Below, piece by piece: positions 11,128 to 34,123 of a stretch of 40,634 nt of DNA. Each line of letters begins with the position of its first letter. Position 1 is the stretch's first letter. The notes under the pieces were generated by a model, which was given only the letters and a program-made list of their open reading frames with translations, was not told where the DNA came from and searched no databases. The position numbers and the translations under genes were made by a program. Origin of the DNA: an uncultured Anaerolineae bacterium. GTDB lineage: Bacteria; Chloroflexota; Anaerolineae; VGOG01. The stretch lies in NCBI GenBank assembly GCA_964592085.1, contig CAZQDO010000002.1, positions 1-40,634 on the forward strand, in the 5' to 3' direction.

Positions 11128-11157
11128 AATGTACAGTGAAGTCCCTTCGCCCGGATG

Positions 11158-11212
11158 ATGACTTTGGTCATAGACAGATGACCGCTCTATTGATATAATT
11201 GGGACAGGTTTC
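11158..11212 (+). promoter_or_regulatory. conserved intergenic promoter/terminator-like module, copy A (hairpin arm degraded)
   Basis: ATGACTTTGGTCAT palindrome (11158-11171), TAGACA, a 17-nt spacer, and TATAAT (11194-11199). The geometry matches copies at 21150, 21811 and 34021. It lies about 45 nt upstream of the TspO-like start. Confidence 0.55.
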
Positions 11213-11245
11213 AAAGTAAACAAAACTGAAAGGCGGAGGTTATTG

Positions 11246-12028: not shown

Positions 12029-12510
12029 GCCAGCGAATTGCATTGAACGTCCAAGCGCCCGGTTTTGCTCTTGAGGATTTTGATGGGCGAACGGTAAGGC
12101 TCTCGGATTACCGTGGGCAGAAACATGTGCTCTTGGTCTTTAACCGTGGCTTCACGTGACCGTTCTGCCGCCGGCACATGGCACAGTTGCGTCAAGACTA
12201 TGAGAAATTCGTGGAAAAGAACGCCGAGGTGATCGTGATCGGCCCGGAAGACAAGGCGACCTATGCTGACTACTGGCAAAGGGAGAACCTGCCCTTCATC
12301 GGTTTGCCCGACCCTCAACACTCCGTGCTGAAACTGTATGGTCAGGAGGTCAACTTGTTCAAACTGGGGCGTATGCCAGCTCAGGTGATCGTGGACTGGG
12401 AGGGTATAGCTCGCTATGTTCACTATGGTCACTCGATGAGCGACATTCCGCCCAATGAAGAACTCCTGGCCCTGCTCGACGAGTTGAATCAGGAAGGGAA
12501 AGCAAAGTGA
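12025..12510 (+). CDS. peroxiredoxin-like / AhpC-TSA (thioredoxin-fold) protein with in-frame TGA at the redox motif: candidate selenoprotein (T-U-P-F-C)
   Basis: Two track ORFs (ending 12159, restarting 12178) share one frame and are separated only by TGA 12157-12159. Read-through gives ...HVLLVFNRGFT-U-PFCRRHMAQLRQDYEKF..., the canonical position of the first Cys of a CxxC/Prx motif. The start overlaps the upstream stop (ATGA) and the stop overlaps the downstream start (GTGA). Confidence 0.6.
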
Positions 12511-13499
12511 TTCCCAACCAATGGTACGTCGTGATGGATCCTGAGCAAGTTAAAGACCGGCCCGTGGGCGTGACGCGCCTGGGCGAAAAGCTGGTCTTCT
12601 GGCGGGATGACACAGGCAAGGTGAGTTGCCTGCGCGACAAATGCGTTCACCGGGGCGTTCAACTCAGCAAGGGCAAGGTGACAGGCGGGTATATCCAGTG
12701 TCCGTTTCATGGCTTCGAGTACGATGCCACTGGTCGCGTCAAGCTCATCCCAGCCAACGGCAAGAATACGCCCGTGCCGGAGCGCTTCAAAGTCCACAGC
12801 TATCCCACCTACGAAAATCACGGCTTCATCTGGATCTGGTGGGGCGAGGAGCCGCCGGACGGCCTCAAGCCGCCGCGTTTCTTCGACGACCTGGACGATA
12901 GCTTCTCCTACGGCAGGGCCTATGACCCCTGGGATGCCCACTATTCCCGCGTCATCGAGAACCAGCTCGACGTGGTGCACCTACCCTTCGTGCACCACAA
13001 CACCATCGGGCGCGGCGGGCGCACGCTGGTGGATGGCCCTGTGGTCCGCTGGATGGATGAGGACATGTTCTTCGTCTACGTCTTCAACCGGGTGGACGAC
13101 GGCACGCCGCCGCGCAGTCCAGAGGAGTTGACGTCCTCGGAGGGCCAAGTGTACCTGGAGTTCATTTTCCCCAACCTGTGGCAGAATCACATCTCGGAAC
13201 AGACGCGCGTTGTGGCCGCCTTCGTGCCGGTGGATGAAGCCCACACCATCCTCTACTTGCGCTTCTACCAGAACTTCGTGCGGCTGCCGCTACTGCGCGA
13301 TCTGTTCAACTGGTTATCCATGCCGTTCAACTTGCTGATCGCTCATCAGGATCGGCGTGTGGTGGTCACGCAGCAACCCAAGCCCTCCGGGCTCAAGATC
13401 GGCGAGAAGCTGATCCAGGGCGACCGGCCCATCGTGGAGTACCGCCGGCGGCGACAAGAACTTCTGGATGAAGTCGCCCGGCCGTCCACGTCGGATTAA
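12507..13499 (+). CDS. Rieske [2Fe-2S] non-heme-iron oxygenase, single-subunit type (PaO/KshA-like architecture)
   Basis: The Rieske motif is CVHRG-x16-CPFHGF. The mononuclear iron motif is ENQLDVVHLPFVHHN (E/D-N-x2-D-x2-H-x4-H). 330 aa with no beta-subunit gene. Confidence 0.8.
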   Translation: MIPNQWYVVMDPEQVKDRPVGVTRLGEKLVFWRDDTGKVSCLRDKCVHRGVQLSKGKVTGGYIQCPFHGFEYDATGRVKLIPANGKNTPVPERFKVHSYPTYENHGFIWIWWGEEPPDGLKPPRFFDDLDDSFSYGRAYDPWDAHYSRVIENQLDVVHLPFVHHNTIGRGGRTLVDGPVVRWMDEDMFFVYVFNRVDDGTPPRSPEELTSSEGQVYLEFIFPNLWQNHISEQTRVVAAFVPVDEAHTILYLRFYQNFVRLPLLRDLFNWLSMPFNLLIAHQDRRVVVTQQPKPSGLKIGEKLIQGDRPIVEYRRRRQELLDEVARPSTSD

Positions 13500-13515
13500 G
13501 CACACCTTCAGGCGA

Positions 13516-13574
13516 CGGAGTCCCCAACTTGTTGGGGGTATGGTGCAATGAACCCGAACAAGTTCGGGACTCCG
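13516..13574 (+). promoter_or_regulatory. paired 16-bp palindromes / long imperfect hairpin between the Rieske and MFS genes
   Basis: CCCCAACTTGTTGGGG (13522-13537) and CCCGAACAAGTTCGGG (13553-13568) are each self-complementary. They are flanked by CGGAGT / ACTCCG, so the whole region can also fold as one 22-bp-arm hairpin. Confidence 0.45.
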
Positions 13575-13634
13575 CTGCCGCGAGGTTGTTGCCCCAGGTA
13601 TCAAAATCAAAGTGATGGGCTAAATAGGTGGAAA

Positions 13635-14846
13635 ATGGATGTAAGAAGACGTCTTGCTTTGCTCTTCGCTTTTGTTTTTGTTGACGTACTCGGTTTCAGC
13701 CTGATCCTGCCGCTGTTGCCCTACTACGCCGAGACCTTTGGGGCCACACCTACCCTCGTTGGGCTGTTGCTGGGCGCCAACGCGGCAGCCCAATTCATCG
13801 GGGCGCCGATCATCGGGCGACTCTCTGACCGCTACGGGCGGCGGCCCTTGTTGATCCTCAGCATCGCTGGCACGGTGGTCAGCTTTGTGATACTTGGCCT
13901 GGCGAACTCGTTGGAGATGCTTTTCGCCAGCCGCATCCTGGACGGACTTCTGGGAGGCAACGTCTCGCTGGCCCAGGCCTACATTACCGACGTGACCGAC
14001 GACAAGAACCGGGCCAGGGGACTGGGTCTCATCGGAGCCGCCTTCGGTCTGGGGTTCATCTTTGGCCCAGCGTTGGGCGGTGCGCTCAGCACCGGGGGAA
14101 ACTACAGTTTGCCTGCCTTCGTGGCCGCTGGCTTGTCGGCCCTCAACTTGTTGGGCGTGCTCATCTGGCTGCCGGAGTCGCTGCCCCCAGAAAGACGCGC
14201 CCAAATGGCCAGTCACCCTCGTACCGCGTTCACAGCTCGCGCGTTGCGGGAAGCGTTGCGTCGTCCCTGCGTTGGCCCACTGTTGCAGGTGACCCTCTTC
14301 TACGGCCTGGCCTTCACCATCTTTCAGACCATCTTTACGCTCTTCGCTGAAAGACGGTTGAGCCTGGACTCGCGAGCCGTGGGCTATGTGTTCACCTACG
14401 TGGGTTTGCTTATCGTGGCTATACAGGGCGGTGGGATGGGACTCCTGACCAAACGCTTCAGCGAAAAGCATCTCATCTTCGGTGGAACGATCCTTCTGAC
14501 CTTTTCGTTGTTAGCGTGGGCACTGACCCCGACGCTGTGGCTGTTGTTGCTGGTGCTGGCCCCGCTGTCCCTGGCCAGCGGCGTGCTCAGGGTTTCCATC
14601 AACAGCGCGCTGACCAAATCGGTCTATCCGGAGGAGGTGGGGGGGACATTGGGCATGTCCGCTTCACTGGAGAGTCTGACGCGGGTCGTGTCGCCCATTG
14701 TGGGTGGGTTCCTGCTTGATAATCTGGGAACGGCGGCCCCAGGCATTGCGGGTGCCCTGCTCATGAGTTTGCTGATTCCCTTCGTGTGGAGGCGGGTGCT
14801 TTTCGTGCCGGATTTGGTATGCCCTGAGCCGATATTAGAGGGATAA
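13635..14846 (+). CDS. MFS transporter (drug:H+ antiporter / Tet-like, 12 TM)
   Basis: ATG 13635 gives MDVRRRLALLFAFVFVDVLGFSLILPLLPYY. MFS motif A is GRLSDRYGRRPLL. The upstream ORF extension (13548) runs through the palindromes and is rejected. Confidence 0.8.
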   Translation: MDVRRRLALLFAFVFVDVLGFSLILPLLPYYAETFGATPTLVGLLLGANAAAQFIGAPIIGRLSDRYGRRPLLILSIAGTVVSFVILGLANSLEMLFASRILDGLLGGNVSLAQAYITDVTDDKNRARGLGLIGAAFGLGFIFGPALGGALSTGGNYSLPAFVAAGLSALNLLGVLIWLPESLPPERRAQMASHPRTAFTARALREALRRPCVGPLLQVTLFYGLAFTIFQTIFTLFAERRLSLDSRAVGYVFTYVGLLIVAIQGGGMGLLTKRFSEKHLIFGGTILLTFSLLAWALTPTLWLLLLVLAPLSLASGVLRVSINSALTKSVYPEEVGGTLGMSASLESLTRVVSPIVGGFLLDNLGTAAPGIAGALLMSLLIPFVWRRVLFVPDLVCPEPILEG

Positions 14847-14927
14847 GGAGGATCCTATAAGACATGGACGCATTATCTTAGCCCAGGAACTTGAATGAGA
14901 CCGACTATCGAGAAAGGAGGAATTGAA

Positions 14928-15698
14928 ATGAACAATGAGCGGACTTTTACAGGGTTGCGCAGATTTAACGCAGCGATGGGTTTGCTCCACCTGGTGCAGG
15001 GGATCCTGATGATCGTTCTCAGCAACGATACCACCTATCCCATCACCACCGCCTACCTCAAGTTCGATTTCGAGAACTTCAAACTGACCTCGAATCTTCA
15101 GGAGACGGGAGAGCTGTTGTTTGGCCCGGCTGTCGCGGTGTTCCTGCTACTCTCGGCCGTGGCGCACTTCAGCCTGTCCACCTTCGGCTACAAGTGGTAC
15201 GTGAGGAATCTCAAGAAGGGCATGAACCCCGCCCGCTTCTACGAGTACGCCCTCAGTTCGTCGCTGATGATCGTCTTGATAGCCATGCTGGTAGGCATGT
15301 ACGACCTGCCCAGCCTGATCCTGATCTTCTCGCTGAACGCCATGATGAATCTGTTCGGCCACATGATGGAACTGCACAACCAGACAACGCCTCGCACCAA
15401 CTGGACGGCCTTCATCTACGGCTGTATCGCCGGGATCGTGCCGTGGATTACGATTGTGATGTATTTGGTTGGCGCGGCCCAATCGGTGGATGCCAAGCCG
15501 CCAGCGTTCGTATACGCCATCATCGCCTCCATCTTCGTGTTCTTCAACATCTTCGCGGTCAACATGTTCTTGCAGTACAAGAAGGTTGGCCCGTGGAAGA
15601 ACTACCTGTTTGGAGAGCGGATGTTCATCGTGCTGAGCCTGGTCGCCAAGACGGCCCTGGCCTGGCAGATATTCGCTGGCACCTTGGCCCCTGTTTAA
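14928..15698 (+). CDS. heliorhodopsin (inverted-topology type-1-like rhodopsin)
   Basis: AGGAGG sits 7 nt before ATG 14928. By eye it aligns along its whole length with the heliorhodopsin 48C12 sequence as I remember it. Matching segments are FNAAMGLLHLVQ, AVAHFS, RFYEYALSSSLMIVLIA (counterion Glu), YGCIAGIVPW, FVYAII.SIFVFFN, LQYKK.G.W.NYL.GER..IVLSLVAKTALAWQIFAGTL (Schiff-base Lys). Confidence 0.9.
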   Translation: MNNERTFTGLRRFNAAMGLLHLVQGILMIVLSNDTTYPITTAYLKFDFENFKLTSNLQETGELLFGPAVAVFLLLSAVAHFSLSTFGYKWYVRNLKKGMNPARFYEYALSSSLMIVLIAMLVGMYDLPSLILIFSLNAMMNLFGHMMELHNQTTPRTNWTAFIYGCIAGIVPWITIVMYLVGAAQSVDAKPPAFVYAIIASIFVFFNIFAVNMFLQYKKVGPWKNYLFGERMFIVLSLVAKTALAWQIFAGTLAPV

Positions 15699-15710
15699 TC
15701 AGAGGATTGT

Positions 15711-16187
15711 ATGAGCCGCTTGAGGCCTGACAAATTGCACGTCCGGTTTGCTGCCGGGGCAAGCCCAGACGGGCCGAGCACTCCCCGCCACTACACCCTG
15801 ACCCACTCCGACGCGACGGGGGACCTGTATCTCACCATCGGGCCGGACTACGACCGCCGGCAGATCTCAGGGTGGTATACCCGCTTAATGCGAGACGAGG
15901 TGCTGGCCGAGTGGCGGCAAGAGAAGGATGGCCCAGCCCTCCACGTTCACTGTCACGTGAGCGGTGGGTTGGTGATCGGCTCGGCTGGCTGGCGATATGC
16001 CATCTTCCAAAGAGAGTTGCCGCTGGTGTTGGAGGCCTTTCGCTTTGGCGACCGGCGGCTCTTTGAGATCGAGCCTGGGCTGGATCGGGCGCCCATTTGG
16101 GTGCATTTCCACGCCGCACAGCTTGGCTACAATAAGACCGAGTCGTGGGGCGTTCCCGCCGATTACCCTGAGAGGGGAGAGGCGTGA
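15711..16187 (+). CDS. Staygreen (SGR) family protein, Mg-dechelatase homologue
   Basis: Starts 12 nt after the heliorhodopsin stop. PRHYTLTHSD, GWYTRLMRDEVLAEW, LHVHCHVSGG, IFQRELPLVLEAF, IWVHFH and ESWG match the conserved SGR-domain blocks of plant SGR1 and bacterial homologues. Confidence 0.85.
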   Translation: MSRLRPDKLHVRFAAGASPDGPSTPRHYTLTHSDATGDLYLTIGPDYDRRQISGWYTRLMRDEVLAEWRQEKDGPALHVHCHVSGGLVIGSAGWRYAIFQRELPLVLEAFRFGDRRLFEIEPGLDRAPIWVHFHAAQLGYNKTESWGVPADYPERGEA

Positions 16188-17248
16188 GGCATTGGATGTT
16201 TGTTTGCCTTATCGTGGTCGTGGTGTTGCTGGTCATTCTGTTGGTCGGCCCCTTGGTGATCCCCTTGCCTCCGCTGGAGGGCGCTGTGCCGCCGCAGAAG
16301 TTGGCCGATCCCGACAGCCGTTTCGTTGACATAAACGGCCTACAAGTGCACTACAAGATGGCGGGCCAGGGTGAGCCTACGGCGGAAAACCTCGCGTTGG
16401 TGCTGCTGCACGGCTTCGCTGCCAGCGTCTTCTCCTGGCGCGAAGTCATGGATCCGCTGTCCGAAATCGGCACGGTGATGGCCTTCGACCGGCCCGCCTT
16501 CGGCCTGACCGAGCGCCCCCTGCCGGGCGAGTGGGTGGGTGAGAGCCCCTACGGTGCCGAGGCACAGATAGAGTTGACCGTTGGCTTGCTGGACGAGCTG
16601 GGGTTGGATCGGGCGATTCTGGTGGGCAACTCCGCTGGAGGCACCATCGCTATGCTCACGGCCTTGACCTATCCAGAGCGGGTGCAGGCTTTGGTGCTGG
16701 CGGATCCCGCCGTCTATGCCCACGGTGGCTGGATGGGCCTCGCCCGTTTCTTCGCCAACACGCCGCAGACGCAACGAATTGGGCCGCTGTTAGTTCGGAG
16801 GATCCGCGCCTGGGGGATGGACTTCGCTCGCTCTGCCTGGCACGATCCGTCGAAGATCACAGCCGAGGTTTGGGAGGGATACCTGAAGCCGCTACGGGCG
16901 GAGAACTGGGATCGGGGCCTATGGGAGTGGGTTCGCGCCAGCCAGTCCCACGATTTGGCGGAGCGGCTGGCTGAGATTCGGATGCCCTGCCTGGTCATCA
17001 CCGGCGACGATGACCGCATCGTGCCGGCGGAGCAGAGCGTCCGTCTGGCCGGTGAGCTGCCTGACGCCGAATTGGTGGTCATCCCAGACTGCGGCCACAT
17101 TCCCCACGAGGAGTGCCCGGAGGCGTTTTTGCAGGCAGTGGCCGATTTCTTGGACAAGCTGCCAACTGCTCACCCTCCCGCAGGTTTGGTCGGTGGTATC
17201 GGGCAAAACGTTAACTTCGGGCAAATATCCGGGCACCCTGTCCGATAA
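16184..17248 (+). CDS. membrane-anchored alpha/beta-hydrolase (serine esterase; pheophytinase/MhpC-like fold)
   Basis: GTG 16184 overlaps the SGR stop (GTGA); the alternative ATG is 16196. N-terminal TM helix (FVCLIVVVVLLVILLVGPLV), LLHGFAAS oxyanion region, GNSAGG nucleophile elbow and DCGHIPHEE catalytic His. The last ~29 codons (from ~17160) are encoded by MITE copy 2. Confidence 0.8.
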   Translation: MRHWMFVCLIVVVVLLVILLVGPLVIPLPPLEGAVPPQKLADPDSRFVDINGLQVHYKMAGQGEPTAENLALVLLHGFAASVFSWREVMDPLSEIGTVMAFDRPAFGLTERPLPGEWVGESPYGAEAQIELTVGLLDELGLDRAILVGNSAGGTIAMLTALTYPERVQALVLADPAVYAHGGWMGLARFFANTPQTQRIGPLLVRRIRAWGMDFARSAWHDPSKITAEVWEGYLKPLRAENWDRGLWEWVRASQSHDLAERLAEIRMPCLVITGDDDRIVPAEQSVRLAGELPDAELVVIPDCGHIPHEECPEAFLQAVADFLDKLPTAHPPAGLVGGIGQNVNFGQISGHPVR

Positions 17249-17278
17249 AGGCAACCTGCGGGAGGGTAGGCTGAGTAG
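17166..17278 (+). mobile_element. MITE-like inverted-repeat element, copy 2
   Basis: CTGCTCACCCTCCCGCAGGTT ... AACCTGCGGGAGGGTAGGCTGAGTAG. The interior is homologous to copy 3 (..ATCGGGCAAAACGTTAACTTCGGGCAAAT.. versus ..ATCAGGGAAAACGCTAACTCTGGGCAGAT..). It overlaps the 3' end of the hydrolase ORF and supplies its stop codon. Confidence 0.7.
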
Positions 17279-17296: not shown

Positions 17297-18559
17297 ATGA
17301 TGCAACTTCAAGACGTACTGGCTGTTGTGCTCGGCGGCGGGCGGGGAGCCCGCCTGTATCCGCTGACCAAGATGCGAGCCAAACCGGCAGTACCCATCGC
17401 CGGCAAATACCGTCTGATTGACGTCCCTATCAGCAATTGTATCAACTCTGGCATCACCCGCATCTTCGTCCTCACCCAGTTCCTTTCGGCTTCCCTCCAT
17501 CGCCACGTCTATCAGACCTACAAGTTCGATGCCTTCTCCGGAGGCTTCGTCGAGATTCTGGCCGCCGAGCAGACGTTGACCCGAGCCGACTGGTACCAGG
17601 GGACGGCGGACGCGGTTCGCCAACAGGTGCACCGCTTCCTGAGCCGAGAGCCGGAGGACGTGCTGATCCTTGCTGGCGACCACCTCTACCGCATGGACTA
17701 TGGCCAGTTCGTCCGTTTTCATCGGGAGAGCCGGGCCGACGTCACCGTCGCTGTCCTTCCTGTCTCGGCGGCGGATGCGCCCCGCTACGGCATCCTCCAG
17801 ACCAGTGATGAAGGGCGCATTGTCGCCTTCCGGGAGAAGCCTCAGGGGGCAGAGGAACTGGCGGGGCTGGAAAGCCGCCACGGAGACGAACGACCCTACC
17901 TGGCCTCAATGGGCATCTACGTCTTCAGGATGGACGTGCTGGTTCGCCTGCTGCAAGAGAGCAGCGGCGACGATTTCGGCAAGCACGTCATCCCGGCGGC
18001 CATTGAGTCGGTGCGTGTTTACGCCTTCCCCTTCGATGGCTACTGGGAGGACATTGGCACCATCTCCGCTTTCTACGAGGCCAACCTGGCCCTGACTCGG
18101 CAAGACCCGCCCTTTGACTTCTACGATCCCCATCGGCGCATCTACACCCGTCCCCGCTTCCTGCCCCCCTCGCGGATAGATGGCTGCCGGATGGAACGGG
18201 TGGTGGTAGCGGAGGGCTGCTGGCTATACGATTCGGACATTGAGGAATGTATCATTGGCCTGCGCAGCGTGGTGCGACCAGGGGCACAGTTGCGTCAGGT
18301 GGTGATGATGGGGGCCGACTTTTACGAGGACGACGACGAAAGGACGGAAAACCGCCGCCTGGGGCGGCCTCACGTGGGCGTTGGGCAGGGTGCTCACATC
18401 GAACGGGCGATCATTGACAAGAACGCCCGCATTGGGCAGGGGGTCGTCATCCGATCCCACGAGGGAGAGCCGGACCGCGAAGAGGAGCACTACGCCATCC
18501 GAGATGGCATCGTGGTCATCCCCAAGAACGCCGTCATACCGGAGGGGATGACCCTTTGA
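17297..18559 (+). CDS. glgC: glucose-1-phosphate adenylyltransferase
   Basis: [42 protein letters not shown], then the left-handed beta-helix C-terminal region. 420 aa. Confidence 0.9.
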
Positions 18560-18590
18560 AAGAAAGATGAAACGAAAGGAGTCCAGACCA

Positions 18591-20858
18591 ATGAAGAAAG
18601 CGATTCTACTACTCACACTTTTTGCCATGCTGGTGACAGGGAGCGTCGTCACCGCAGCACCACCGAGCCAGGTGCCCGACGGGGAGACGTACATCGTGCA
18701 AGCGGGCGACTGGCTCCTGAAGATCGCCGAGAAGTTCTACGGCGATGCGGCCGCCTACCGCATCATCGTGGAGGCCACCAATGCCAAAGCCGCTGAAGAC
18801 GCCAGCTTTGTCGTGATTGACGACCCTAGCCTGATCAGGGTGGGACAGAAGCTGTGGATCCCATCTCCCGAAGTGGCGACCGAGGTCGTTGCCTACGTGC
18901 CACCTGTGCCCTCCGAAACCCATGATGGATACTGCTGGACCAACTTCTTGAACTCGCCCTACTCGTGGAGCTGTATGGTTGACAGCCAGATTTTCGAGCC
19001 TTGCCTCACCGCGACGAACGGTGAAACCATCGTCTGCAACATTGATCCACTGGACGAGGGCAAGCATTTCGGCCTGAACCTGACTGAACCGCTCCCTGAG
19101 CCGCAAGAAGCTCAACCAGATGCTCCGATATCGGGGATGACCTGGTTGCTGGAATTGGGCGATGGCGTCGTTTGCGGCCTGTTCAGTGGTGCATCCATTG
19201 GGTTCGATGAGAAGCGCGTGAACTACGGCTGCACCGACGGCACGGACATTCTGGGTGACCCGCAGCCCGGCACTGTCTGGACCGTCGAACAAATCGTGGT
19301 GGGTCATGACGAGGACGGTTTCTTCATCGAAGAGTCGGAAATCGTGCCGGTGATCAGAGCCTGGCAGCCAGGTAATCCCACCACCGACGGAAAAGGACTG
19401 ACCCTGGAGGCCCTGCAAAACGCTGTGTATCAGGGCATCTACGACGAACCCGTACAACTGACCGATGGGCAGTACGAAGGCGAGCCCTTCGTTCCAGGTG
19501 GCGCGTCACGGCCAACGGTCACACTGCACCCAGAGGTCTACGCCTTCGGCGATCTCAACGGCGATGGGGTGGACGATGCGGCGGTGATTCTGATCGAGAG
19601 CTCCGGTGGCAGTGGCAGCTTCCTCTATCTGGCGGCCGTCGTCAATGAAAGTGGGGCACCGGTGAACGTCGCTACCCAGTTCGTGGGGGATCGCGAGCAG
19701 GTACAGGCGATCAGCGTTGAGGCTGGTGAGATCACTCTCGAAATGGTCGCCCACGGCCCGGATGATCCCATGTGCTGCCCGACCCAGGAAGTGACGAAGG
19801 TGTACCAGTTGCAGGATGACCAACTGGTTGAGGTGCTCGTGGGTCTGGAAGGCACAACGTGGGTACTGGTCTCTTATGGCGATCCAAGCGATCCTCAGGC
19901 TGTTCTGGAAGGCACTGAGATCACGGTCGTATTCGACAGTGCTGAAGGTAGAGTCAGCGGCTCTGCGGGCTGCAACAGCTACTTCGGGTCGTATGAGGTT
20001 GACGAGGGCACAATCACCTTTGGCCTGCTGGGCGCTACCCTGATGGCGTGCCTTGAGCCAGAAGGGGTCATGGAGCAGGAAGCGGCCTATTTTGCGGCGC
20101 TGGACTCGGTTGTTACCTATCACATTCAGGGTGACAAGCTGGAGATGGGGGATACAGACGGCGCGCTGGTGCTGCAATTCACCGCTGTAAGCGAAGCGGC
20201 GCCGACCGAGGTGGTTGATGGGGAAGCGTACGTCGTGCAACCAGGCGACTGGCTCACGAAGATCGCCAGGAACTTTTACGGTGATGCCGATGCCTACCGT
20301 GTCATCGTGGAGGCCACCAACGCCAAAGCCGCTGATGATGCGAGCTTCGCCATCATTGACAACCCCAGCCTGATCAGAGTGGGGCAGAAGCTATGGATCC
20401 CTGCCCAGCCGGGTAGTCTGACCCTGGAGGCCCTGCGAAACGCTGTGTATCAGGGCATCTACGATGAGCCTGTGCAACTGACCGATGGGAAGTATGAAGG
20501 CGAGTCCTTCGTTCCAGGTGGCGCGTCACGGCCAACAGTCACGCTGTATCCTGAGGTCTACGCCTTCGGCGATCTCAACGGCGATGGGGTAGATGATGCG
20601 GCAGTGATTCTGATCGAGAGCTCCGGTGGCAGTGGCAGCTTCCTCTATCTGGCGGCCGTCCTCAATGAGGGGGGGACACCCGTGAACATCGCTACCCAGT
20701 TCGTGGGGGATCGCGAGCAGGTACAGGCGATCAGCATTGAGGCTGGCGAGGTCACCCTCGAAATGGTCGCCCACGGCCCCGGTGATCCCATGTGCTGTCC
20801 GACCCAGGAAGTCACGAAGAGATATCGGTTGCAGGGCGATCAACTGGTTGAGCTGTGA
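18591..20858 (+). CDS. secreted multidomain protein: LysM - Cys-rich domain - repeat domain R - META (HslJ-like) - LysM - repeat domain R
   Basis: The signal peptide MKKAILLLTLFAMLVTGSVVTAAPP follows AAGGAG. There are two LysM motifs (Y.VQ.GDWL.KIA..FYGD...Y..I..ATN...IRVGQKLWIP). The META-like segment is WVLVSYGD...GSAGCNSYFGSYEV...ATLMAC. The R domain contains FGDLNGDGVDDAAV. Confidence 0.75.
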   Translation: MKKAILLLTLFAMLVTGSVVTAAPPSQVPDGETYIVQAGDWLLKIAEKFYGDAAAYRIIVEATNAKAAEDASFVVIDDPSLIRVGQKLWIPSPEVATEVVAYVPPVPSETHDGYCWTNFLNSPYSWSCMVDSQIFEPCLTATNGETIVCNIDPLDEGKHFGLNLTEPLPEPQEAQPDAPISGMTWLLELGDGVVCGLFSGASIGFDEKRVNYGCTDGTDILGDPQPGTVWTVEQIVVGHDEDGFFIEESEIVPVIRAWQPGNPTTDGKGLTLEALQNAVYQGIYDEPVQLTDGQYEGEPFVPGGASRPTVTLHPEVYAFGDLNGDGVDDAAVILIESSGGSGSFLYLAAVVNESGAPVNVATQFVGDREQVQAISVEAGEITLEMVAHGPDDPMCCPTQEVTKVYQLQDDQLVEVLVGLEGTTWVLVSYGDPSDPQAVLEGTEITVVFDSAEGRVSGSAGCNSYFGSYEVDEGTITFGLLGATLMACLEPEGVMEQEAAYFAALDSVVTYHIQGDKLEMGDTDGALVLQFTAVSEAAPTEVVDGEAYVVQPGDWLTKIARNFYGDADAYRVIVEATNAKAADDASFAIIDNPSLIRVGQKLWIPAQPGSLTLEALRNAVYQGIYDEPVQLTDGKYEGESFVPGGASRPTVTLYPEVYAFGDLNGDGVDDAAVILIESSGGSGSFLYLAAVLNEGGTPVNIATQFVGDREQVQAISIEAGEVTLEMVAHGPGDPMCCPTQEVTKRYRLQGDQLVEL
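19398..19835 (+). repeat. intragenic duplication, unit 1 (domain R)
   Basis: A near-identical nucleotide copy lies exactly 1020 nt downstream (20418-20855), with scattered, mostly third-position or conservative substitutions by eye. Confidence 0.85.
20418..20855 (+). repeat. intragenic duplication, unit 2 (domain R)
   Basis: Copy of 19398-19835. It runs to the last sense codon of the gene. Confidence 0.85.
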
Positions 20859-20913: not shown

Positions 20914-21123
20914 TTTGAGAAGTGGAACATAGACACGGAGGACTGGCGACAGCTAGGCGCGGAGGCCATTGCGTCGACGGTGGTGGACCAGGCATATCCG
21001 GGCGCTATTGTGCTATTCCACGATGGTGGTGGCGATCAGTCCCAGACGGTGGAGGCGTTGGAAACAATCCTCGAGACCCTGAGCAATGAGGGGTACGTTT
21101 TCGAGGTGGTGGTGTGCCCGTAG
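20914..21123 (+). pseudogene. 3' remnant of a polysaccharide deacetylase (NodB-homology) gene
   Basis: The frame is open only from 20869 and has no plausible start. It translates to [13 protein letters not shown]...[11 protein letters not shown]...[22 protein letters not shown], the C-terminal ~70 aa of the NodB fold (W..D..DW, LxHD motif). The N-terminal catalytic motifs are absent. Confidence 0.55.
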
Positions 21124-21149
21124 GGGAGAAACAGGCAAAGCGCTTGAAA

Positions 21150-21206
21150 GTGATTTTCGTCATATACAGACGGTTGCTCTGGTGATATAATGAGGGCAAC
21201 CGTTTT
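21150..21206 (+). promoter_or_regulatory. conserved intergenic promoter/terminator-like module, copy B (upstream of ferritin)
   Basis: GTGATTTTCGTCAT, TATACA, a 17-nt spacer and TATAAT (21186-21191). The hairpin CGGTTGC/GCAACCG brackets the -10-like box and is followed by TTTTT. Confidence 0.6.
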
Positions 21207-21257
21207 TAGGTGAGTGAAGGTCTGCCAAAAAATAAAGAGAAAAGGAGATAAGCAGCG

Positions 21258-21752
21258 ATGTTAAACAAGCCCATGCAGGACGCAATGAACGAGCAGATCA
21301 AGAACGAGCTCTACTCTGCCTACATCTACCTCTCAATGTCAGCCTACTTCGAGGACACCAGTCTCCCCGGCTTTGCCCACTGGATGCGAGTGCAGGCGCA
21401 GGAGGAGCAGGAGCACGCGATGAAGTTCTACCACTTCATCAACGAGCGGGGTGGCCGTGTTGTCCTTCAGGCCATTGATCAGCCGCCTATGGAATTTGAG
21501 TCACCCCTCGATGTGTTCGAGCGCACCCTCGAACATGAGCAGAGAGTGACGGGTTTGATTCATCAACTGTACGCCCTCGGCGTTCAGGAGCAGGACTACG
21601 CCAGCCAGATCTTTCTGCAGTGGTTCGTGACAGAGCAGGTCGAGGAAGAGGCCAACGCTACTCAGATCGTAGAGACGCTGAAGCTCATCGGCGATAAGCG
21701 CCATGCTCTCCTCATGCTGGATCGAGAGCTGGGCAGCCGGGGAGCTGACTAG
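21258..21752 (+). CDS. ftn: ferritin (non-heme, Ftn-type)
   Basis: MNEQIKNELYSAYIYLSMSAYF...HWMRVQAQEEQEHAMKFYHFINERGG contains the ferroxidase-centre Glu/His ligands. 164 aa. Confidence 0.9.
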   Translation: MLNKPMQDAMNEQIKNELYSAYIYLSMSAYFEDTSLPGFAHWMRVQAQEEQEHAMKFYHFINERGGRVVLQAIDQPPMEFESPLDVFERTLEHEQRVTGLIHQLYALGVQEQDYASQIFLQWFVTEQVEEEANATQIVETLKLIGDKRHALLMLDRELGSRGAD

Positions 21753-21810
21753 ACGAGCCACCGGCTGAGAAATGCGTCGGAGTGCGGACGTGGGTCTGCC
21801 CGATGCCTGA

Positions 21811-21870
21811 ATGACTTTTGTCATAGACAGTCGGCTGCCCTGGGGATATGATAAGGGCAGCCATTTTTTT
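21811..21870 (+). promoter_or_regulatory. conserved intergenic promoter/terminator-like module, copy C (between ferritin and copA)
   Basis: Perfect palindrome ATGACTTTTGTCAT (21811-21824), TAGACA, a 17-nt spacer and TATGAT (21847-21852). The hairpin GGCTGCCC/GGGCAGCC is followed by T7. Confidence 0.6.
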
Positions 21871-21964
21871 GAGAACATGGATGGACAGGATTTACGGCTT
21901 ATCCTACCAGTCCGTTAAATCCCGCCAGTCCGTTGTTCCTCTCTTTGGAAAAGGAGGTAACCAA

Positions 21965-24505
21965 ATGACAAAACAGGTCACTTTGCCAGTCCAGGGCATG
22001 ACCTGCGCCTCGTGCGTGGTGCACGTGGAGGGGGCTCTGAAAGGCGTTGAGGGGGTGAGCGCAGCTAACGTCAACCTGGCCACCGAAACGGCCAGCGTGG
22101 AGTTCACTCCTGAGGGGGCGGAGGTGAGCCAGTTGATTTCGGCCGTGCGTGACGTTGGCTACGATGTGGCTACTGAAAAGGTGTCCCTGCCCATCGGCGG
22201 GATGACCTGCGCCAGTTGCGTGGCTCACGTCGAAGGGGCATTGGCCGACATTCCTGGCGTGGTGAGCGCCAACGTCAACCTGGCCACCGAAAAGGCTGCA
22301 GTAGAATACATCCCCACCATGACCGGGCTGCCCGATTTCCGCCGTGCCGTGGCCGAGGTGGGCTACGAGGTATTGCCTACTGCGGAGGAGAAAGCAGAAG
22401 AGGAACTCTCCCGCGAGGTACGCAAGATGCAGGACGCACGACGCAGGATGCTGCTGGCCTGGGCCTTCACCATCCCCATCATCCTGTGGATGCTGCCGGA
22501 GATGCTGGCCGGCCTGGCCTGGCCCAACGAGACGATTTTCAAGCTGGGGATGCTGCTGCTGGCCACGCCGGTGCTCTTCTGGGTCGGGCAGCACACCTAC
22601 GTGGCGGCCTGGCGCTCGACGACGCACGGCGCGCCCAACATGGACGCCCTGATCGCTATGGGCACTGGGGCCTCTTTTCTCACTGGCATCGCCACGTTCT
22701 TCGCCCCCATCCCCACCTACGCCGGGGTGTCAGCCATGATCATGGCCTTCCACCTGACCGGCCGCTACGTGGAGGCCAGCGCCAAGGGGCGAGCATCGCA
22801 GGCCATCCGCAAGCTGCTGGAGCTGGGGGCCAAGACCGCCCGCATCCTCGTAGATGGCGACGAGAGAGAGGTTCACATTGACGAAGTGCAGCCGGGCGAC
22901 GTGATGCTCGTCCGGCCCGGTGAGCAGATTCCCACCGACGGGATCGTGGTGCGTGGCGAGAGCGCGGTGGACGAGTCCATGGCCACCGGCGAATCCATGC
23001 CCGTCAACAAGCGCGCGGGCGACGAGGTGATCGGGGCTACGGTCAACCAGGACGGGCTGCTCAAAGTACGGGCCACCCGGGTGGGCAAGGACACCTTCCT
23101 GGCTCAGGTGGTGCGCCTGGTCGAGCAGGCTCAAGGCACCAAAGTGCCCATCCAGGCCTTCGCCGACCGGGTGACGGCCGTCTTCGTGCCCATCGTCCTG
23201 GCCGTGGCCCTGCTCACTTTTCTGGCCTGGCTGCTGTTCCCCGATACGCTGAGGCCCATCGCTGTGTGGGCCAGCCGTTTCCTGCCCTGGGTGGACCCCA
23301 ACCTGAATACGTTCACCCTGGCCTTGATCACCGCCGTCTCCGTGCTGGTCATCGCCTGCCCCTGCGCCCTGGGGCTGGCTACGCCCACGGCGTTGATGGT
23401 CGGCAGCGGCATCGGAGCCGAGAATGGCATCCTCATCCGCTCCGGCGAAGCAATCCAGGCCATGCGCGACGTGCGGGTGGTGGTGTTCGACAAGACGGGG
23501 ACGCTCACCAAAGGGCAACCTGAGGTGACGGACCAAATATCCAATGCCCAATATCAAATGTCAAGCGTGAAACGTGAAACGTCAAACGTGAAACGTCAAT
23601 CTGTCGCTGAGGAATTGCTCTACTGGGCAGCGTCGGTGGAGGTGGGGAGCGAGCATCCGCTGGGTAGAGCGGTGGTGCGTAAGGCCGAGGAGCAAGGGAT
23701 TGCGCTGGGAGACCTGACCGAGTTCGAGACACTGCGTGGCAAGGGCGTGCGAGGCATCGTGGATGGGAAGAGGGTGTTGGTGGGCAGCCGGGCGCTGATG
23801 GAGGAAAACGGTGTAGAGGTGACGTCGATGGAAGACGAGATGCGTCGCCTGGAGGACGAAGGGAAGACGGCCATGTTGGTCACTGTGTACGAGGATGGAG
23901 TCCCGAACTTGTTCGGGGTCCTGGCCGTGGCCGACACCCTCAAAGACGACGCCGTGGCCGCCGTCCGCGAACTGAAGGCGCTGGGCTTGCGCACAGTGAT
24001 GATCACCGGCGACAACCAGCGCACGGCACAAGCTATTGCCCGTCAAGTAGGCATTGACCACGTACTGGCCGAGGTGCTGCCGGAGGACAAGCTGGTCGAG
24101 GTCAAACGATTGCAGGCGGAAACCGATGGATTGGTGGCTATGGTCGGCGACGGCATCAACGACGCGCCGGCCCTGACCCAGGCTGATGTGGGCATCGCCA
24201 TCGGCACCGGCACGGACATCGCCATTGAGGCCGCCGACGTCACCCTGGTGCGCGGCGATCTCTCCGGCGTGGTCAGTGCCGTCAAGCTCTCCCGGGCCAC
24301 CTTCAACAAAGTGATACAAGGGCTATTCTGGGCCTTCTTCTACAACGTGGTCATGATCCCCCTGGCCATCCTGGGGATGATGCACCCCGTGCTGGCCGAG
24401 ATCGCCATGGCCACCAGTTCGATCACCGTGGTCACCAACGCCAATTTGCTGCGACGAGTGAACATCCGTCCTGTAGGGCAAAATGCCATTTTGCCCACTA
24501 TGTGA
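21965..24505 (+). CDS. copA: Cu(I)-translocating P1B-1-type ATPase with two N-terminal HMA domains
   Basis: AAGGAGG precedes ATG 21965. There are two GMTCASC motifs, a TM CPC ([11 protein letters not shown]), DKTGTLT and GDGINDAP, plus YN in TM7 and MATSS in TM8. The 21848 ORF extension reads through module C and is rejected. Confidence 0.9.
23560..23601 (+). repeat. six tandem heptanucleotide units inside copA (GTCAAGC GTGAAAC GTGAAAC GTCAAAC GTGAAAC GTCAATC)
   Basis: Read directly from the sequence. It is an AT-rich patch in a GC-rich gene and encodes [14 protein letters not shown] just after [15 protein letters not shown], where P1B ATPases normally run quickly into the SEHPL motif. Confidence 0.85.
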
Positions 24506-24516
24506 AAAGGATACCC

Positions 24517-26661
24517 ATGCCAACCAAGACATTCACCGTAGAGGGGTTAACCTGTGTAGATTGTGCGGAAAGAGTCCAGGCGGCCGTAAGCCAGGTGGAA
24601 GGCGTAAACGATTGCCAGGTTGATCACGCGGCTGGCACACTGACAGTTTCATCAGCGACGCCAGGTCTAGCCACGAACCAGATTGCCAAAGCGGTGAGCT
24701 CAGCAGGCTACAGGTTGGTCACTGACCGCCGCCGGGAAGGGAATCCTATTTTGGGCTTCGTGCGCTTCATCTTGTCGAAGCGGGAGACAGCGATGACGGC
24801 TGTGGCCGGGCTGATGACGTTGCTGGGACTGACCTTTGCGGTGGCTGGCGCGCCGCCCTGGAGCCGGACGATCCTTTTCGCAGCGGCCATTCTCGTAGGT
24901 GGGATCCCAGTAGCGCACCACGCCTGGCAAGAAATGTGGCTGGCTCGAAGTCTGGGCATCAACGCGCTGATGGTGATCGCCGTCGTTGGCGCGGCCTTCA
25001 TTGGGGAATGGGCAGAGGCGGCCATTGTGGTGGTGCTTTTCTCGTTGGGCGAGGCGCTGGAGGGATACGCCGCGGAGCAGGCGCGCGGTGCTCTGGATGG
25101 TCTGCTCGACCTGGCCCCGCCGGTGGCTCTGAAGCTCCTGCCCGCTGGTGACACTCAAGAGGTCGCAGTGGAGCAACTGGCCATAGGGGACCGGGTGCTT
25201 ATCCGGCCGGGCGACCGGGTTAGCGTCGATGGCCTGGTGCTGGCCGGACGGAGCACAGTGGATCAATCGCCGATCACCGGTGAAAGCGTGCCGGTGGAAA
25301 AAGCGCCGGGCGATGAAATCTTTGCCGGGTCCATCAACGGGGAGAGCGCCCTGGAGGTGGAGGTGACCCGCCTGGCGGCCGACAACACCCTCAGCCGCAT
25401 GGTGGCGCTGGTGCGAGAGGCGCAGTCACGGCAAGCACCGGTGCAGCGCTTCATTGACCGCTTTGCGCGGGTCTACACGCCAGCGGTGGCAGGAGTGGCC
25501 GCACTGGTGGCCATCGTCCCGCCGCTGGTTTTCGGGCAACCCTTCTGGGGAAGCTACGGCTGGCTGATGCGGGCGCTACAGATGCTGGTGATTGCCTGCC
25601 CTTGCGCTCTGGTGATCAGCACGCCGGTCAGCCTGGTGAGCGCCATGACCAATGCCGCGTCGCGCGGGGTGCTGATCAAAGGCGGGCGCTACCTGGAGGC
25701 ATTGAGCCGAGTCAGAGTCTTTGCCCTCGACAAGACCGGCACTCTGACCGAGGGTCGCCCTGTCGTAACGGAGATTGTGGAGATTTGTACCTGCGGGGAG
25801 TGCCCAGAGGATTGTGGTCTGCAACATGCGGCCTCGCTGGAGGCGCAGTCATCTCACCCACTGGCTCGGGCGCTGCTGGCAGAGGCTGCTGCGAGGGGAG
25901 TGACCGTGCCCGGCGCCCAGAGCGTCACCGTGCTGAGCGGGCGGGGGATGGAGGGCATTGTGAACGACAAACAGGTCACGGTCGCCAGCCATGCCCATTT
26001 TGACGAGTATATCCCCCACCAGGCATCGGTGTGCCAATTGGCCGACGAGCTGGCTGCCCAGGGCAAGACGGTGATTCTGGTACGGCACGACGACGAGGTG
26101 TGCGCCCTGTTTGGCGTGGCCGATGTGCCTCGCACCAACGCGCGCCAGGCGGTGGCCGATCTGAAAGCCCGCGATGGCGTCCGCATCGTGATGCTGACCG
26201 GTGACAATCCAATTGTGGCGACAGAGATCGGCCGTCAGGTCGGGGTGGACGAAGTGCGCGCCGGGCTTCTGCCGGAGGAAAAGGTGTCGGCTGTCGCTGC
26301 GCTGGCAGAGGAATATCAGACGGTGGCCATGGTCGGCGACGGCGTGAACGATGCCCCGGCGCTGGCCCAGGCGGACGTGGGTATCGCCATGGGGGGTGCG
26401 GGCTCGGCCCAGGCGATGGAGACAGCCGACGTGGTGCTGATGGGCGACGACCTGGCCCAACTGCCCTTTATCGTGGGGCTCAGCCGCAGGACGAGAGGGA
26501 TTGTGACAGCCAACATCACCTTTGCCCTGGCAGTCAAGGCGGTCATCTTCGCTCTGGCGACGGCGGGCCTGGCCACGTTGTGGATGGCGGTGGCAGCCGA
26601 CGTCGGGGCATCGCTGGCGGTGATCCTGAACGGCATGCGATTGCGTCGGATGAAGGCTTGA
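24517..26661 (+). CDS. Zn/Cd/Pb-type (P1B-2, ZntA/CadA-like) heavy-metal ATPase
   Basis: The ORF opens at GTG 24502, overlapping the copA stop. ATG 24517 has AAAGGA upstream. The single HMA has GLTCVDC. Other motifs are TM CPC (ACPCALVISTP), DKTGTLT, GDGVNDAP, Lys in NITFALAVKAV, and Asp in AADVGASLAVILNGMRL, typical of the Zn/Cd subtype. Confidence 0.85.
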   Translation: MPTKTFTVEGLTCVDCAERVQAAVSQVEGVNDCQVDHAAGTLTVSSATPGLATNQIAKAVSSAGYRLVTDRRREGNPILGFVRFILSKRETAMTAVAGLMTLLGLTFAVAGAPPWSRTILFAAAILVGGIPVAHHAWQEMWLARSLGINALMVIAVVGAAFIGEWAEAAIVVVLFSLGEALEGYAAEQARGALDGLLDLAPPVALKLLPAGDTQEVAVEQLAIGDRVLIRPGDRVSVDGLVLAGRSTVDQSPITGESVPVEKAPGDEIFAGSINGESALEVEVTRLAADNTLSRMVALVREAQSRQAPVQRFIDRFARVYTPAVAGVAALVAIVPPLVFGQPFWGSYGWLMRALQMLVIACPCALVISTPVSLVSAMTNAASRGVLIKGGRYLEALSRVRVFALDKTGTLTEGRPVVTEIVEICTCGECPEDCGLQHAASLEAQSSHPLARALLAEAAARGVTVPGAQSVTVLSGRGMEGIVNDKQVTVASHAHFDEYIPHQASVCQLADELAAQGKTVILVRHDDEVCALFGVADVPRTNARQAVADLKARDGVRIVMLTGDNPIVATEIGRQVGVDEVRAGLLPEEKVSAVAALAEEYQTVAMVGDGVNDAPALAQADVGIAMGGAGSAQAMETADVVLMGDDLAQLPFIVGLSRRTRGIVTANITFALAVKAVIFALATAGLATLWMAVAADVGASLAVILNGMRLRRMKA

Positions 26662-26844: not shown

Positions 26845-26960
26845 CTGTTCACCCTCCCGCAGGTTTAGCCAGTAATATCAGGGAAAACGCTAACTCTGGG
26901 CAGATGTTCAGACACCTGCCCTTTCCCCACAAGCAACCTGCGGGAGGGTAGACTGAGTAG
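26845..26960 (+). mobile_element. MITE-like inverted-repeat element, copy 3
   Basis: CTGTTCACCCTCCCGCAGGTT ... AACCTGCGGGAGGGTAGACTGAGTAG. It starts immediately after the YHS stop codon. Confidence 0.7.
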
Positions 26961-31655: not shown

Positions 31656-31684
31656 TTGTCATAAGGCGGTCGCTATGGTATAAT
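31656..31684 (+). promoter_or_regulatory. near-consensus sigma70-type promoter for copB
   Basis: TTGTCA, a 17-nt spacer and TATAAT with an extended -10 TG (TGGTATAAT). It lies about 60 nt upstream of ATG 31747. Confidence 0.55.
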
Positions 31685-34077: not shown

Positions 34078-34123
34078 GTGGTGAAAGGCTCTCTCGTCGT
34101 GACCTGACCAGGAGAGGCAAATA

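Follow-up and report, generated by a model that had tools for sequence, protein, structure and literature searches.

Organization of the module in the window

The 40,634-nt stretch of contig CAZQDO010000002.1 (assembly GCA_964592085.1, from an uncultured Anaerolineae bacterium), hereafter called the window, contains four copies (A to D) of an intergenic module in which a palindrome, a sigma70-type promoter and, in three copies, a hairpin followed by a T-run are laid over one another (Table 1). All four lie on the + strand, each just 5' of a + strand gene, and a repeat search of the window placed them in a single family, D5. A first-pass annotation of this DNA had reported four modules at these + strand positions, and the family assignment bears it out, as do the scores of a position weight matrix (PWM) built from related copies: 48-75 bits for the four modules and at most 20 bits in the rest of the window. 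A relaxed scan of the window yielded no copies besides these four. The promoter pattern TAGACA-N17-TATAAT, with up to two mismatches allowed, matched the window six times against 0.29 expected, and none of 100 shuffles reached six matches.

The distance from the centre of the palindrome to the -10 hexamer is 29.5 nt in all four copies, as had been proposed, and the last base of the palindrome is the first base of the -35 hexamer. The -10 element is TG-extended in three of the four copies, and the hexamers of the core promoter match the consensus at 10-11 of 12 positions in addition to the TG. Other parts of the first description needed amendment. The palindrome is perfect in copies A, C and D, but the left half-site of copy B carries two mismatches; the hairpin with its T-run, which had been assigned to every copy, is present in B, C and D but not in A, and its stems are longer than first given (12, 9 and 13 pairs in B, C and D, respectively). 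The co-directional open reading frame (ORF) said to precede each module is a gene for A, C and D, whereas copy B follows the truncated remnant of one. In addition, a conserved GGTGA(C) is located 2-5 nt past the T-run in copies B and D and in many related paralogous copies; it contains the sequence of the left half-site GTGAC and in most copies is no Shine-Dalgarno sequence for the downstream gene.

Table 1. Positions of the module copies and of neighbouring features in the window.
Feature	Position	Strand	Remarks
Copy A, whole	11158-11199	+	variant spacer GATGACCGCTC..., without 3' arm and T-run; upstream RNase_T-like exonuclease; downstream TspO-like, peroxiredoxin, Rieske
Copy A, palindrome	11158-11171	+	ATGACTTTGGTCAT; ATGAC-N4-GTCAT, perfect
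Copy A, -35	11171-11176	+	TAGACA
Copy A, -10	11194-11199	+	TATAAT, TG-extended
Copy B, whole	21150-21207	+	upstream truncated deacetylase remnant; downstream ferritin
Copy B, palindrome	21150-21163	+	GTGATTTTCGTCAT; GTGAT-N4-GTCAT, left half-site GTGAT, 2 mismatches
Copy B, -35	21163-21168	+	TATACA
Copy B, -10	21186-21191	+	TATAAT
Copy B, 5' arm	21169-21180	+
Copy B, 3' arm	21193-21204	+
Copy B, T-run	21203-21207	+	TTTTT
GGTGA(C) after copy B	21210-21214	+
Copy C, whole	21811-21870	+	begins 58 nt past ferritin stop; upstream ferritin; downstream copA, ATPase, YHS
Copy C, palindrome	21811-21824	+	ATGACTTTTGTCAT; ATGAC-N4-GTCAT, perfect
Copy C, -35	21824-21829	+	TAGACA
Copy C, -10	21847-21852	+	TATGAT
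Copy C, 5' arm	21833-21841	+
Copy C, 3' arm	21854-21862	+
Copy C, T-run	21864-21870	+	TTTTTTT
Copy D, whole	34021-34084	+	includes conserved GGTGA; upstream P-type ATPase; downstream methyltransferase, DUF166
Copy D, palindrome	34021-34034	+	ATGACTTTTGTCAT; ATGAC-N4-GTCAT, perfect
Copy D, -35	34034-34039	+	TAGACA
Copy D, -10	34057-34062	+	TATAAT
Copy D, 5' arm	34040-34052	+
Copy D, 3' arm	34063-34075	+
Copy D, T-run	34074-34077	+	TTTT
GGTGA of copy D	34080-34084	+
RNase_T-like gene	10558-11127	+	copy A begins 30 nt past it
Copy A to TspO-like gene	11200-11245	+	46 nt; ATG at 11246
Cluster around copy A	9137-16187
Hydrolase gene	16184-17248
D16, first copy	17166-17270
NTP_transferase gene	17297-18559
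Gap to META/LysM gene	18560-18566		7 nt
META/LysM gene	18567-20858		763 aa
Truncated polysaccharide-deacetylase C-terminal ORF	20980-21123	+	47 aa; spacer to copy B through 21149
Ferritin gene	21258-21752	+
copA leader	21860-21964	+	about 105 nt
Direct repeat in copA leader	21907-21916, 21926-21935		CCAGTCCGTT
copA	21965-24505	+	ATG at 21965
Second P-type ATPase gene	24502-26661		followed by YHS gene
D16, second copy	26845-26955
Promoter of third P-type ATPase gene	31656-31684		TTGTCA, 17 nt, TG-TATAAT
Third P-type ATPase gene	31747-34002	+	copy D begins 18 nt past its stop
Methyltransferase gene	34124-34948	+	34124-34160 begins MVGRKRQIVKIN
DUF166 gene	34950-35711

Recurrence of the module across genomes

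One genome per species was scanned with the pattern TGAY-N4-GTCATAKACA-N17-TATRAT, resulting in 39 loci where roughly nine would be expected by chance (37 bits, 1.2e12 positions). About 28 of these belong to Chloroflexota, mostly to metagenome-assembled genomes (MAGs) of Anaerolineae, several of which hold two to five copies. A metagenome scan contributed 74 further loci, bringing the collection to 103 unique copies, 44 of which have the window's spacer GAYGRCTGYYCTGRTGA; about 50 distinct copies from genomes and metagenomes are of the Anaerolineae type. The search pattern placed no constraint on the spacer, the 3' arm, the T-run, the flanks or the gene content. The dyad recurs in related copies as well, with an independent check limited to L115-L122, the only loci fetched through a protein and hence independent of the DNA pattern; the 29.5-nt phasing was seen in more than 40 copies and is pattern-fixed except in L115-L122. 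Usually, no more than about 120 nt separate an examined copy from the start of the first ORF downstream. Every related copy collected shares its strand with a nearby downstream ORF. A distribution over both orientations without a link to gene starts, which the first-pass annotation had named as speaking against its proposal, was not seen.

Matches outside the phylum were of two kinds. Eleven (L016, L017, L026, L027, L041, L049, L050, L059, L072, L073 and L108) fall in a glutamine-amidotransferase-like coding motif (…VIDNYDSFTYN…; VIDNYDSFTYNL) and were set aside as coding coincidence; the others are promoters of other clades with the same palindrome and unrelated spacers. Within Chloroflexota, loci of other classes (Chloroflexia L005, L030, L040, L044 and L091; Dehalococcoidales L007 and L010/L074) have TGAC-N4-GTCA equally far from TATAAT, but with unrelated spacers and without the hairpin. 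Because the operator-TATAAT distance is the same in these classes, the operator-promoter phasing seems older than the Anaerolineae cassette. Downstream of the Chloroflexia sites is a small gene (119-125 aa) shared by these loci in conserved form, and the gene downstream at L010 is TusA-like by eye. An extra palindrome, TTATGAGGATTTTCTCATAA, is found directly 5' of the cassette in several DUF166 and flavodiiron copies (L008 rev. 1105, L033, L066 and L075) and could represent either a weak hairpin or a site for a second factor.

A CRP-family gene adjoins the module in relatives

In the relatives L022, L057 and L115-L122 a gene for a CRP-family protein adjoins the module. The protein of L022, 221 aa in length with cNMP_binding and HTH_Crp_2 domains, ends 15 nt 5' of the module. 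It has 1241 homologs at E ≤ 1e-20, of which the best 120 are at least 71% identical to it; the named ones among these 120 are CRP-like or Crp/Fnr-family regulators, five of the names giving Anaerolineae or Chloroflexi. The loci L115-L122, which were retrieved by exact protein identity, share an array of NTP_transferase, crp, Fer4, cysteine desulfurase, ferritin, NifU, TusA and DsrE genes. Scanning with the PWM located the module 7-10 nt past the crp stop codon in L115, L116/L117 and L120-L122, with no second module in these 20-kb loci, and in L118/L119 crp is followed by inserted repeats and then by a degenerate module ahead of the Fer4 gene. The copy directly behind the regulator gene is referred to below as the founder; MAG GCA_964510205.1 carries the regulator with the founder module (L116), an rpoD copy (L003) and a copA copy (L018). 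CRP-family genes near such promoters were also seen elsewhere: in another clade (L036, Thermodesulfovibrionales; L062, L076 and L100) a ATGACGTTCGTCAT promoter drives a COX1-like membrane protein with a CRP-family gene convergent to it, and in Blautia GTGACATATGTCAT precedes a Crp-family gene.

The recognition helix of the regulator, TVRDVVGR, aligns with SRETVGR of CAP and matches R180-E181-x-x-G-R185 of CRP (as R-D-x-x-G-R); conservation of its R, G and R within the family exceeds 90% (best 120 of 1241 homologs). R180 is reported to correlate with G at the third half-site position, in a GTGA core, and HcpR1-type factors to recognise TTGACnnnnGTCAA (Rodionov et al., 2005; PMC1274295), and the module site (A/G)TGAC-N4-GTCAT is compatible with both. 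The earlier proposal of a CRP/FNR-type site is strengthened by these R180 and R185 equivalents and by the regulator gene located immediately upstream in the protein-fetched loci. Among solved structures, those of GlxR, mycobacterial CRP, Thermus CRP and E. coli CAP come closest (E 1e-21 to 1e-17), with DNR in 12th place, and no NCBIfam equivalog cut-off was reached by the protein. An HMMER alignment to GlxR revealed that the G-E and R-T-S residues that hold cyclic AMP (cAMP) are replaced by N-L and N-L-A, replacements that are conserved among the homologs (FNLVP..N-L-A). Since the cAMP-contacting residues are replaced, we infer an effector other than cAMP. Residues C47 and C109 are invariant in all 120 best homologs of the 1241; from these two cysteines together with the altered cAMP site, we would guess at a thiol or redox signal.

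The hairpin and the T-run

One arm of the hairpin is the -35/-10 spacer and the other the sequence around +1; the -10 box lies in the loop between them. Computed folding energies for copies B, C and D are -22.4, -19.3 and -26.8 kcal/mol (z -6.1, -2.9 and -7.5 against shuffled sequences), and in copy A, with a fold of -5.2 kcal/mol (z +0.2), the hairpin is not formed. For the pairing statistics, 28 copies having the 3' arm, a set picked for having the hairpin, were aligned (alignment A1) and the cells of a 12-pair helix counted: 93.6% are paired, against 23-63% in slid-partner controls. Five pairs change on both sides, a number that 4 of 500 shuffles reached, and the covariation score of 0.261 was reached by none of 500. 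Columns 11/39 contain G-C in 15 copies, G·U in nine and A-U in four without a single A·C, and overall G·U cells number 37 against 12 A·C cells.

Several observations are less affected by the choice of aligned set. Copy B and its counterpart before the ferritin ortholog in L034 differ by two compensated double changes (C-G to T-A and T-A to C-G). The variant-spacer copies L020 and L021 have unrelated 5' arms, GACCGTCAATCTT and GACCGCCACTCTT, each with a matching 3' arm, giving 13 perfect or near-perfect pairs that are followed by a short T-rich stretch (TTTT in L020, TTTCTGCTT in L021); the two stems differ from each other at two compensated pairs. The + strand RNA is more stable than that of the - strand in 21 of 24 copies, by 5.2 kcal/mol on average (-22.4 vs. 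-11.9 for B, -19.3 vs. -17.9 for C and -26.8 vs. -18.4 for D). A T-run is present in 23 of the 24 copies with a hairpin and in 9 of the 20 without (Fisher p=3e-4) when the hairpin class is set by an energy threshold; under a lenient definition, at least seven spacer-to-downstream pairs in the minimum free energy structure, nearly all copies qualify and no association with the T-run is seen. The orientation of the upstream gene did not separate the classes, as both hairpin and hairpin-less copies follow co-directional genes.

Given the structure of the + strand RNA, the compensatory and G·U pairs and the co-occurrence with the T-run, the hairpin reads as an intrinsic terminator of the upstream gene; and because the promoter spacer, which supplies its 5' arm, precedes the cassette's own start, the hairpin would form only in read-through RNA. 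Both suggestions made at first pass, that pairing is under selection and that terminator and promoter are combined in one element, gain weight here, the former from covariation, G·U intermediates, strand asymmetry and the alternative arms of L020 and L021, the latter from the joint occurrence of hairpin and T-run and from the co-directional ORF ahead of every window copy. A second palindrome, GACAG-N4-CTGTC, over the -35 element and the spacer was considered as an operator and rejected, its fourth position being T or C about equally.

Genes behind the module

Downstream gene families were assigned by Pfam annotation in a census of the Anaerolineae-type copies. Small 4Fe-4S proteins follow nine copies (seven Fer4s and two Fer4b) and DUF166 seven; copA and ferritin follow five each, DUF255 thioredoxin-like proteins four, rpoD three, and DUF438 with hemerythrin two. 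A flavodiiron protein, desulfoferrodoxin (superoxide reductase) and a methyltransferase, the last being that of window copy D, each follow a single copy, and 11 copies precede genes of no assigned family. The variant-spacer copies, which lie outside this census, precede an MFS transporter (L020) and a hemerythrin protein (L021). An oxidative and metal-stress regulon had been suspected from the window, and flavodiiron, desulfoferrodoxin, hemerythrin/DUF438, ferritin, DUF255, Fer4 and copA as targets in relatives agree with it; judged by these genes, an extension of the regulon to the supply of Fe-S clusters also fits.

Two of the window targets have features of their own. The copA leader is nearly identical in the relative L034 and contains a direct repeat that may be a copper-sensor operator or a leader element layered on the cassette. 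At copy D, the orthologous cassette in L039 drives a 4Fe-4S protein beginning MVKRQIVKINEELCNGCG, with a close homolog in L006, and the alignment of copy D with L039 diverges directly past the first codons of the methyltransferase and of this protein. The alignment suggests that one gene was replaced by another here while the cassette and the first 12 or so codons stayed in place.

Origin of the dispersed copies

At several loci the 20-50 nt 5' of the palindrome contain a remnant of the crp 3' end (GGCAGGCGGGTAG; …GGACTGGAGCGGGAGGCGGCAGGCGGGTAA). Such remnants occur at the founder position, before the Fer4 gene, where crp has been lost (L004, L012, L057, L107 and L110), and also at copies driving DUF166 (L008, L066 and L075), a flavodiiron protein (L008), copA (L019) and unassigned genes (L064 and L098). 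L057 has a full-length crp and, 3 kb downstream, a crp remnant followed by a module. As part of the regulator gene persists next to copies 5' of other genes, spread of the cassette by duplication of the founder region appears to be the best explanation. In the relatives L004, L012 and L057 a complete deacetylase end is followed by the crp remnant and the module; the truncated deacetylase ORF and the spacer before copy B (20980-21149) would mark a rearranged ancestral cassette site. All four window cassettes are conserved in the nearest relative, the CAYMKL MAG (L034 and L039).

Proposed function and its alternatives

On the balance of these comparisons, all of them computational, we consider it probable that the module combines a class II promoter of the CRP type with an embedded terminator, was copied from the regulator locus and serves genes for iron, copper and oxygen stress. 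The promoter would be of the sigma70 type, with -35 TAGACA, a 17-nt spacer and a TG-extended TATAAT, and the 14-bp operator (A/G)TGAC-N4-GTCAT would be centred at about -41.5 if, as we assume, transcription starts 7 nt past the hexamer. Its most likely occupant would be a dimer of the conserved Anaerolineae CRP-family regulator, presumably acting as a class II activator. Spacer and +1 region would form the arms of the G+C-rich hairpin, with the -10 box in the loop and the T-run 3', and in read-through RNA from the upstream gene this hairpin would stop transcription, leaving downstream expression under the regulated promoter alone. The founder copy, directly after the regulator gene, would drive the Fer4/cysteine desulfurase/ferritin/NifU/TusA operon, and its hairpin would terminate the regulator gene itself. 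Segmental duplication would then have brought the cassette to further genes, at times together with part of the crp 3' end, building by copying a regulon for Fe-S cluster supply, iron storage, detoxification of oxygen radicals and copper efflux. A bolder version, which we put forward tentatively and with some doubt, regards the module as a 'plug-and-play' insulated promoter cassette of about 60 nt (operator, promoter and terminator around the -10 box) copied from the founder site to unrelated genes, such that one duplication both insulates a gene and enrols it in the regulon of a non-cAMP CRP-family protein, perhaps one that senses thiol or redox state.

A number of points weigh against a class II promoter with an embedded terminator. 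Conservation of the palindrome, -35 and -10 elements in L002-L114 is circular, these having been fixed by the search pattern. It is not obvious why a promoter so near to consensus (-35 matching at 5/6, spacer of 17 nt, TG, perfect -10) should need an activator. No regulator gene is present in the window, where tblastn gave only noise and the ORFs submitted to Pfam contained no cNMP_binding or HTH_Crp_2 domain. The window shares synteny with the regulator loci (CitMHS, Usp, Zip and ABC_sub_bind close to its beginning, hydrolase and NTP_transferase later), but at the regulator's place the NTP_transferase gene is followed after 7 nt by a META/LysM gene, and then by the truncated deacetylase fragment, copy B and ferritin. 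As the cassettes are conserved with respect to the nearest relative while crp is missing from the window, the regulator is presumably encoded elsewhere in this genome. With regard to the terminator, the covariation is modest and was computed on a set chosen for the hairpin, and the base combinations at columns 15/35 are about as independence predicts. In about 40% of the Anaerolineae-type copies the 3' arm or the T-run has been lost, as it has in every rpoD copy, in the copies before flavodiiron and DUF438 genes and in copy A of the window; these likewise stand behind co-directional genes, so that the hairpin is optional, and since they keep the spacer sequence, the spacer is conserved for a reason other than pairing, which could be common descent, promoter function or both. 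The loop is nominally 12-13 nt, narrowed to 6 nt in RNAfold structures of B and D by inner A-U or G·U pairs but not in C, and the T-run of copy D is just TTTT. A consensus terminator scan did not report the hairpins, which it missed because of its loop limit of 3-8 nt. Finally, a terminator placed over the promoter leaves the latter open to occlusion by read-through polymerase. No Rfam family matched anywhere in the window at gathering thresholds.

The strength of the core promoter, with 10-11 of 12 hexamer positions and the TG matched, can be turned into a different reading, in which the promoter is constitutive and the palindrome is a repressor operator: a dimer over -48 to -35, sharing a base with the -35 hexamer, would block sigma region 4 or the alpha C-terminal domain until freed by stress. 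Stress regulons of anaerobes are often repressor-controlled. On the other hand, CRP/FNR-family proteins at -41.5 classically activate, and repression by CRP, FNR and GlxR usually proceeds through sites over -10 or +1; the invariant 29.5-nt phasing would point to the need of face-of-helix activation, with the restriction that it is independent of the search pattern in L115-L122 alone. We regard repression as unlikely, though deserving serious attention. A similar but slightly lower standing is given to the view that the hairpin is the founder's regulator-gene terminator, carried along by duplication, functionless in the dispersed copies and decaying neutrally. The 3' arm or T-run is partly or wholly lost in L064, L098, L047, L077, L085 and window copy A, the spacer that forms the 5' arm is conserved where the 3' arm is gone, and hairpin-less copies are no different in the direction of the gene before them. 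Neutral decay is hard to square, however, with the compensated double changes between the orthologous, non-founder copies B and L034, with the series of G-C, G·U and A-U but no A·C at columns 11/39, with wholly different arms pairing perfectly in L020 and L021, and with the retention of hairpin and T-run together; it is therefore rather improbable.

If the inverted repeat acted as DNA, either as the operator of a second dimeric protein or as a supercoiling-dependent cruciform exposing or hiding the -10 box, its centring on the -10 element and the conservation of the spacer arm in sequence, and not in pairing alone, would be accounted for. Copies within one genome vary on both arms, which the specificity of a single protein would not tolerate; the frequency of G·T pairs over A·C and the poorer folding of the - strand are not predicted by duplex symmetry, and the T-run is one-sided. 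The chance of a DNA-level role is accordingly small. Smaller still is that of a mobile element (of the miniature inverted-repeat transposable element, MITE, or repetitive extragenic palindromic, REP, kind) or a small-RNA gene, the alternative offered at first pass: the module is repeated, has an inverted repeat within it and evidently spread by copying from locus to locus, but the window copies have neither terminal inverted repeats nor target duplications, window and related copies alike share the strand of the nearby downstream ORF, copies per genome are few, and positions are orthologous between genomes. A small RNA containing the hairpin is impossible because the 5' arm precedes any start that the promoter could give, and the lack of Rfam matches in the window also speaks against this idea. 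It finds no support, then, beyond the fact that the cassette does appear to have been copied between genes.

Other features of the window

The META/LysM protein has large internal duplications (D3, 300 nt at 92%; D4, 215 nt at 80%), and its gene sits where relatives have the regulator and a response regulator ahead of its homolog. A second intergenic repeat, D16, occurs twice, at 78% identity over 72 nt, once across the stop codon of the hydrolase gene and once directly after the YHS gene. The repeat folds into a long, imperfect hairpin (about 105 nt; arms CACCCTCCCGCAGGTT and AACCTGCGGGAGGGT; -53.5 kcal/mol, z -4.3) and has no Rfam match at E ≤ 1; CCCCGCAG...CTGCGGGG units resembling it are tandemly inserted after crp in L118. 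By its form, D16 could be a MITE- or REP-like element or a long terminator. The cluster around copy A, consisting of photolyase, TspO-like, peroxiredoxin fragment, Rieske/VanA_C oxygenase, MFS transporter, heliorhodopsin and Staygreen (Mg-dechelatase family) genes, has a light or tetrapyrrole flavour. A near-consensus sigma70-type promoter (11/12) is located 5' of the third P-type ATPase gene and has neither the palindrome nor the cassette spacer.

Implications

Sediments, digesters and the subsurface harbour abundant Anaerolineae, few of which have been brought into culture; a literature search found no described transcription factor regulon for the class. The present work offers a regulator, a site and a list of targets (Fe-S assembly, ferritin, flavodiiron protein, superoxide reductase, hemerythrins, copper efflux and rpoD) that bear on how these nominal anaerobes may cope with oxygen and metals. 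If the proposed origin is true, the regulon grows by copying of a complete regulatory unit and not by point mutations that make binding sites, and the remnant of a regulator gene on dispersed copies would be rare direct evidence of such growth. A terminator looped around the -10 box of the next gene would be a very compact insulator, of possible interest for synthetic biology. For genome annotation it is relevant that predictors handling terminators and promoters separately will miss a cassette of this kind.

Comparison with known systems

The class II sites of CRP and FNR in E. coli are centred at -41.5. Like promoters of that class, the module has a dyad (5-N4-5, or GTGA-N6-TCA(T/C)) with its centre 29.5 nt 5' of the -10 hexamer and abutting the -35 element, and a CRP-family protein with equivalents of R180, G184 and R185 is encoded beside the founder copy; unlike theirs, its core promoter is near consensus and not weak. 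The half-site (A/G)TGAC joins the G3 of CRP sites with the C7 of FNR and HcpR1 sites. The regulator itself differs from CRP in lacking equivalents of the cAMP-contacting G71, E72, R82 and S83, and from FNR in lacking the Cys cluster.

Closer in several respects are the HcpR, DNR and NnrR regulons (PMC1274295), which also involve a CRP/FNR-family factor without an Fe-S cluster motif, ferredoxin-like, hemerythrin-like and redox-detoxifying targets, and a regulator gene beside its targets; the motif of the module closely resembles the TTGACnnnnGTCAA of HcpR1. The regulator was nevertheless not recognised as an HcpR ortholog, no phylogeny with bona fide HcpR sequences having been made. No hcp gene is found among the downstream genes of the collected copies, the regulator is, among solved structures, nearest to GlxR and the mycobacterial and Thermus CRP proteins, ahead of DNR, and reaches no equivalog model, and the targets of the module include Fe-S assembly, ferritin, copA and rpoD.

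With intrinsic terminators the hairpin shares a G+C-rich stem of 9-13 pairs followed by 4-7 T just past a co-directional ORF, a tolerance of G·U pairs and a more stable fold of the transcribed strand. It departs from them in that the promoter spacer serves as one arm and the initial transcribed region of the following gene as the other, the -10 box lying between them in the loop, and in a wide nominal loop that shrinks to 6 nt only through weak inner pairs. A literature search found no described class of terminator-overlapping promoter arranged in this way. Reused or 'mobile' prokaryotic promoters, highly similar promoter segments 5' of unrelated genes within and between genomes, have been described (PMC3575422) and resemble the cassette in that regulatory DNA is copied separately from genes. 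The cassette differs from these in also carrying an operator and a terminator, in bringing, in several cases, 20-50 nt of the crp 3' end, and in that no associated transposase or insertion sequence was seen. The parts, a probable class II CRP-type promoter and a probable intrinsic terminator, belong to known kinds; what is new is their fusion, with the -10 box in the terminator loop, and the propagation of the fused unit.

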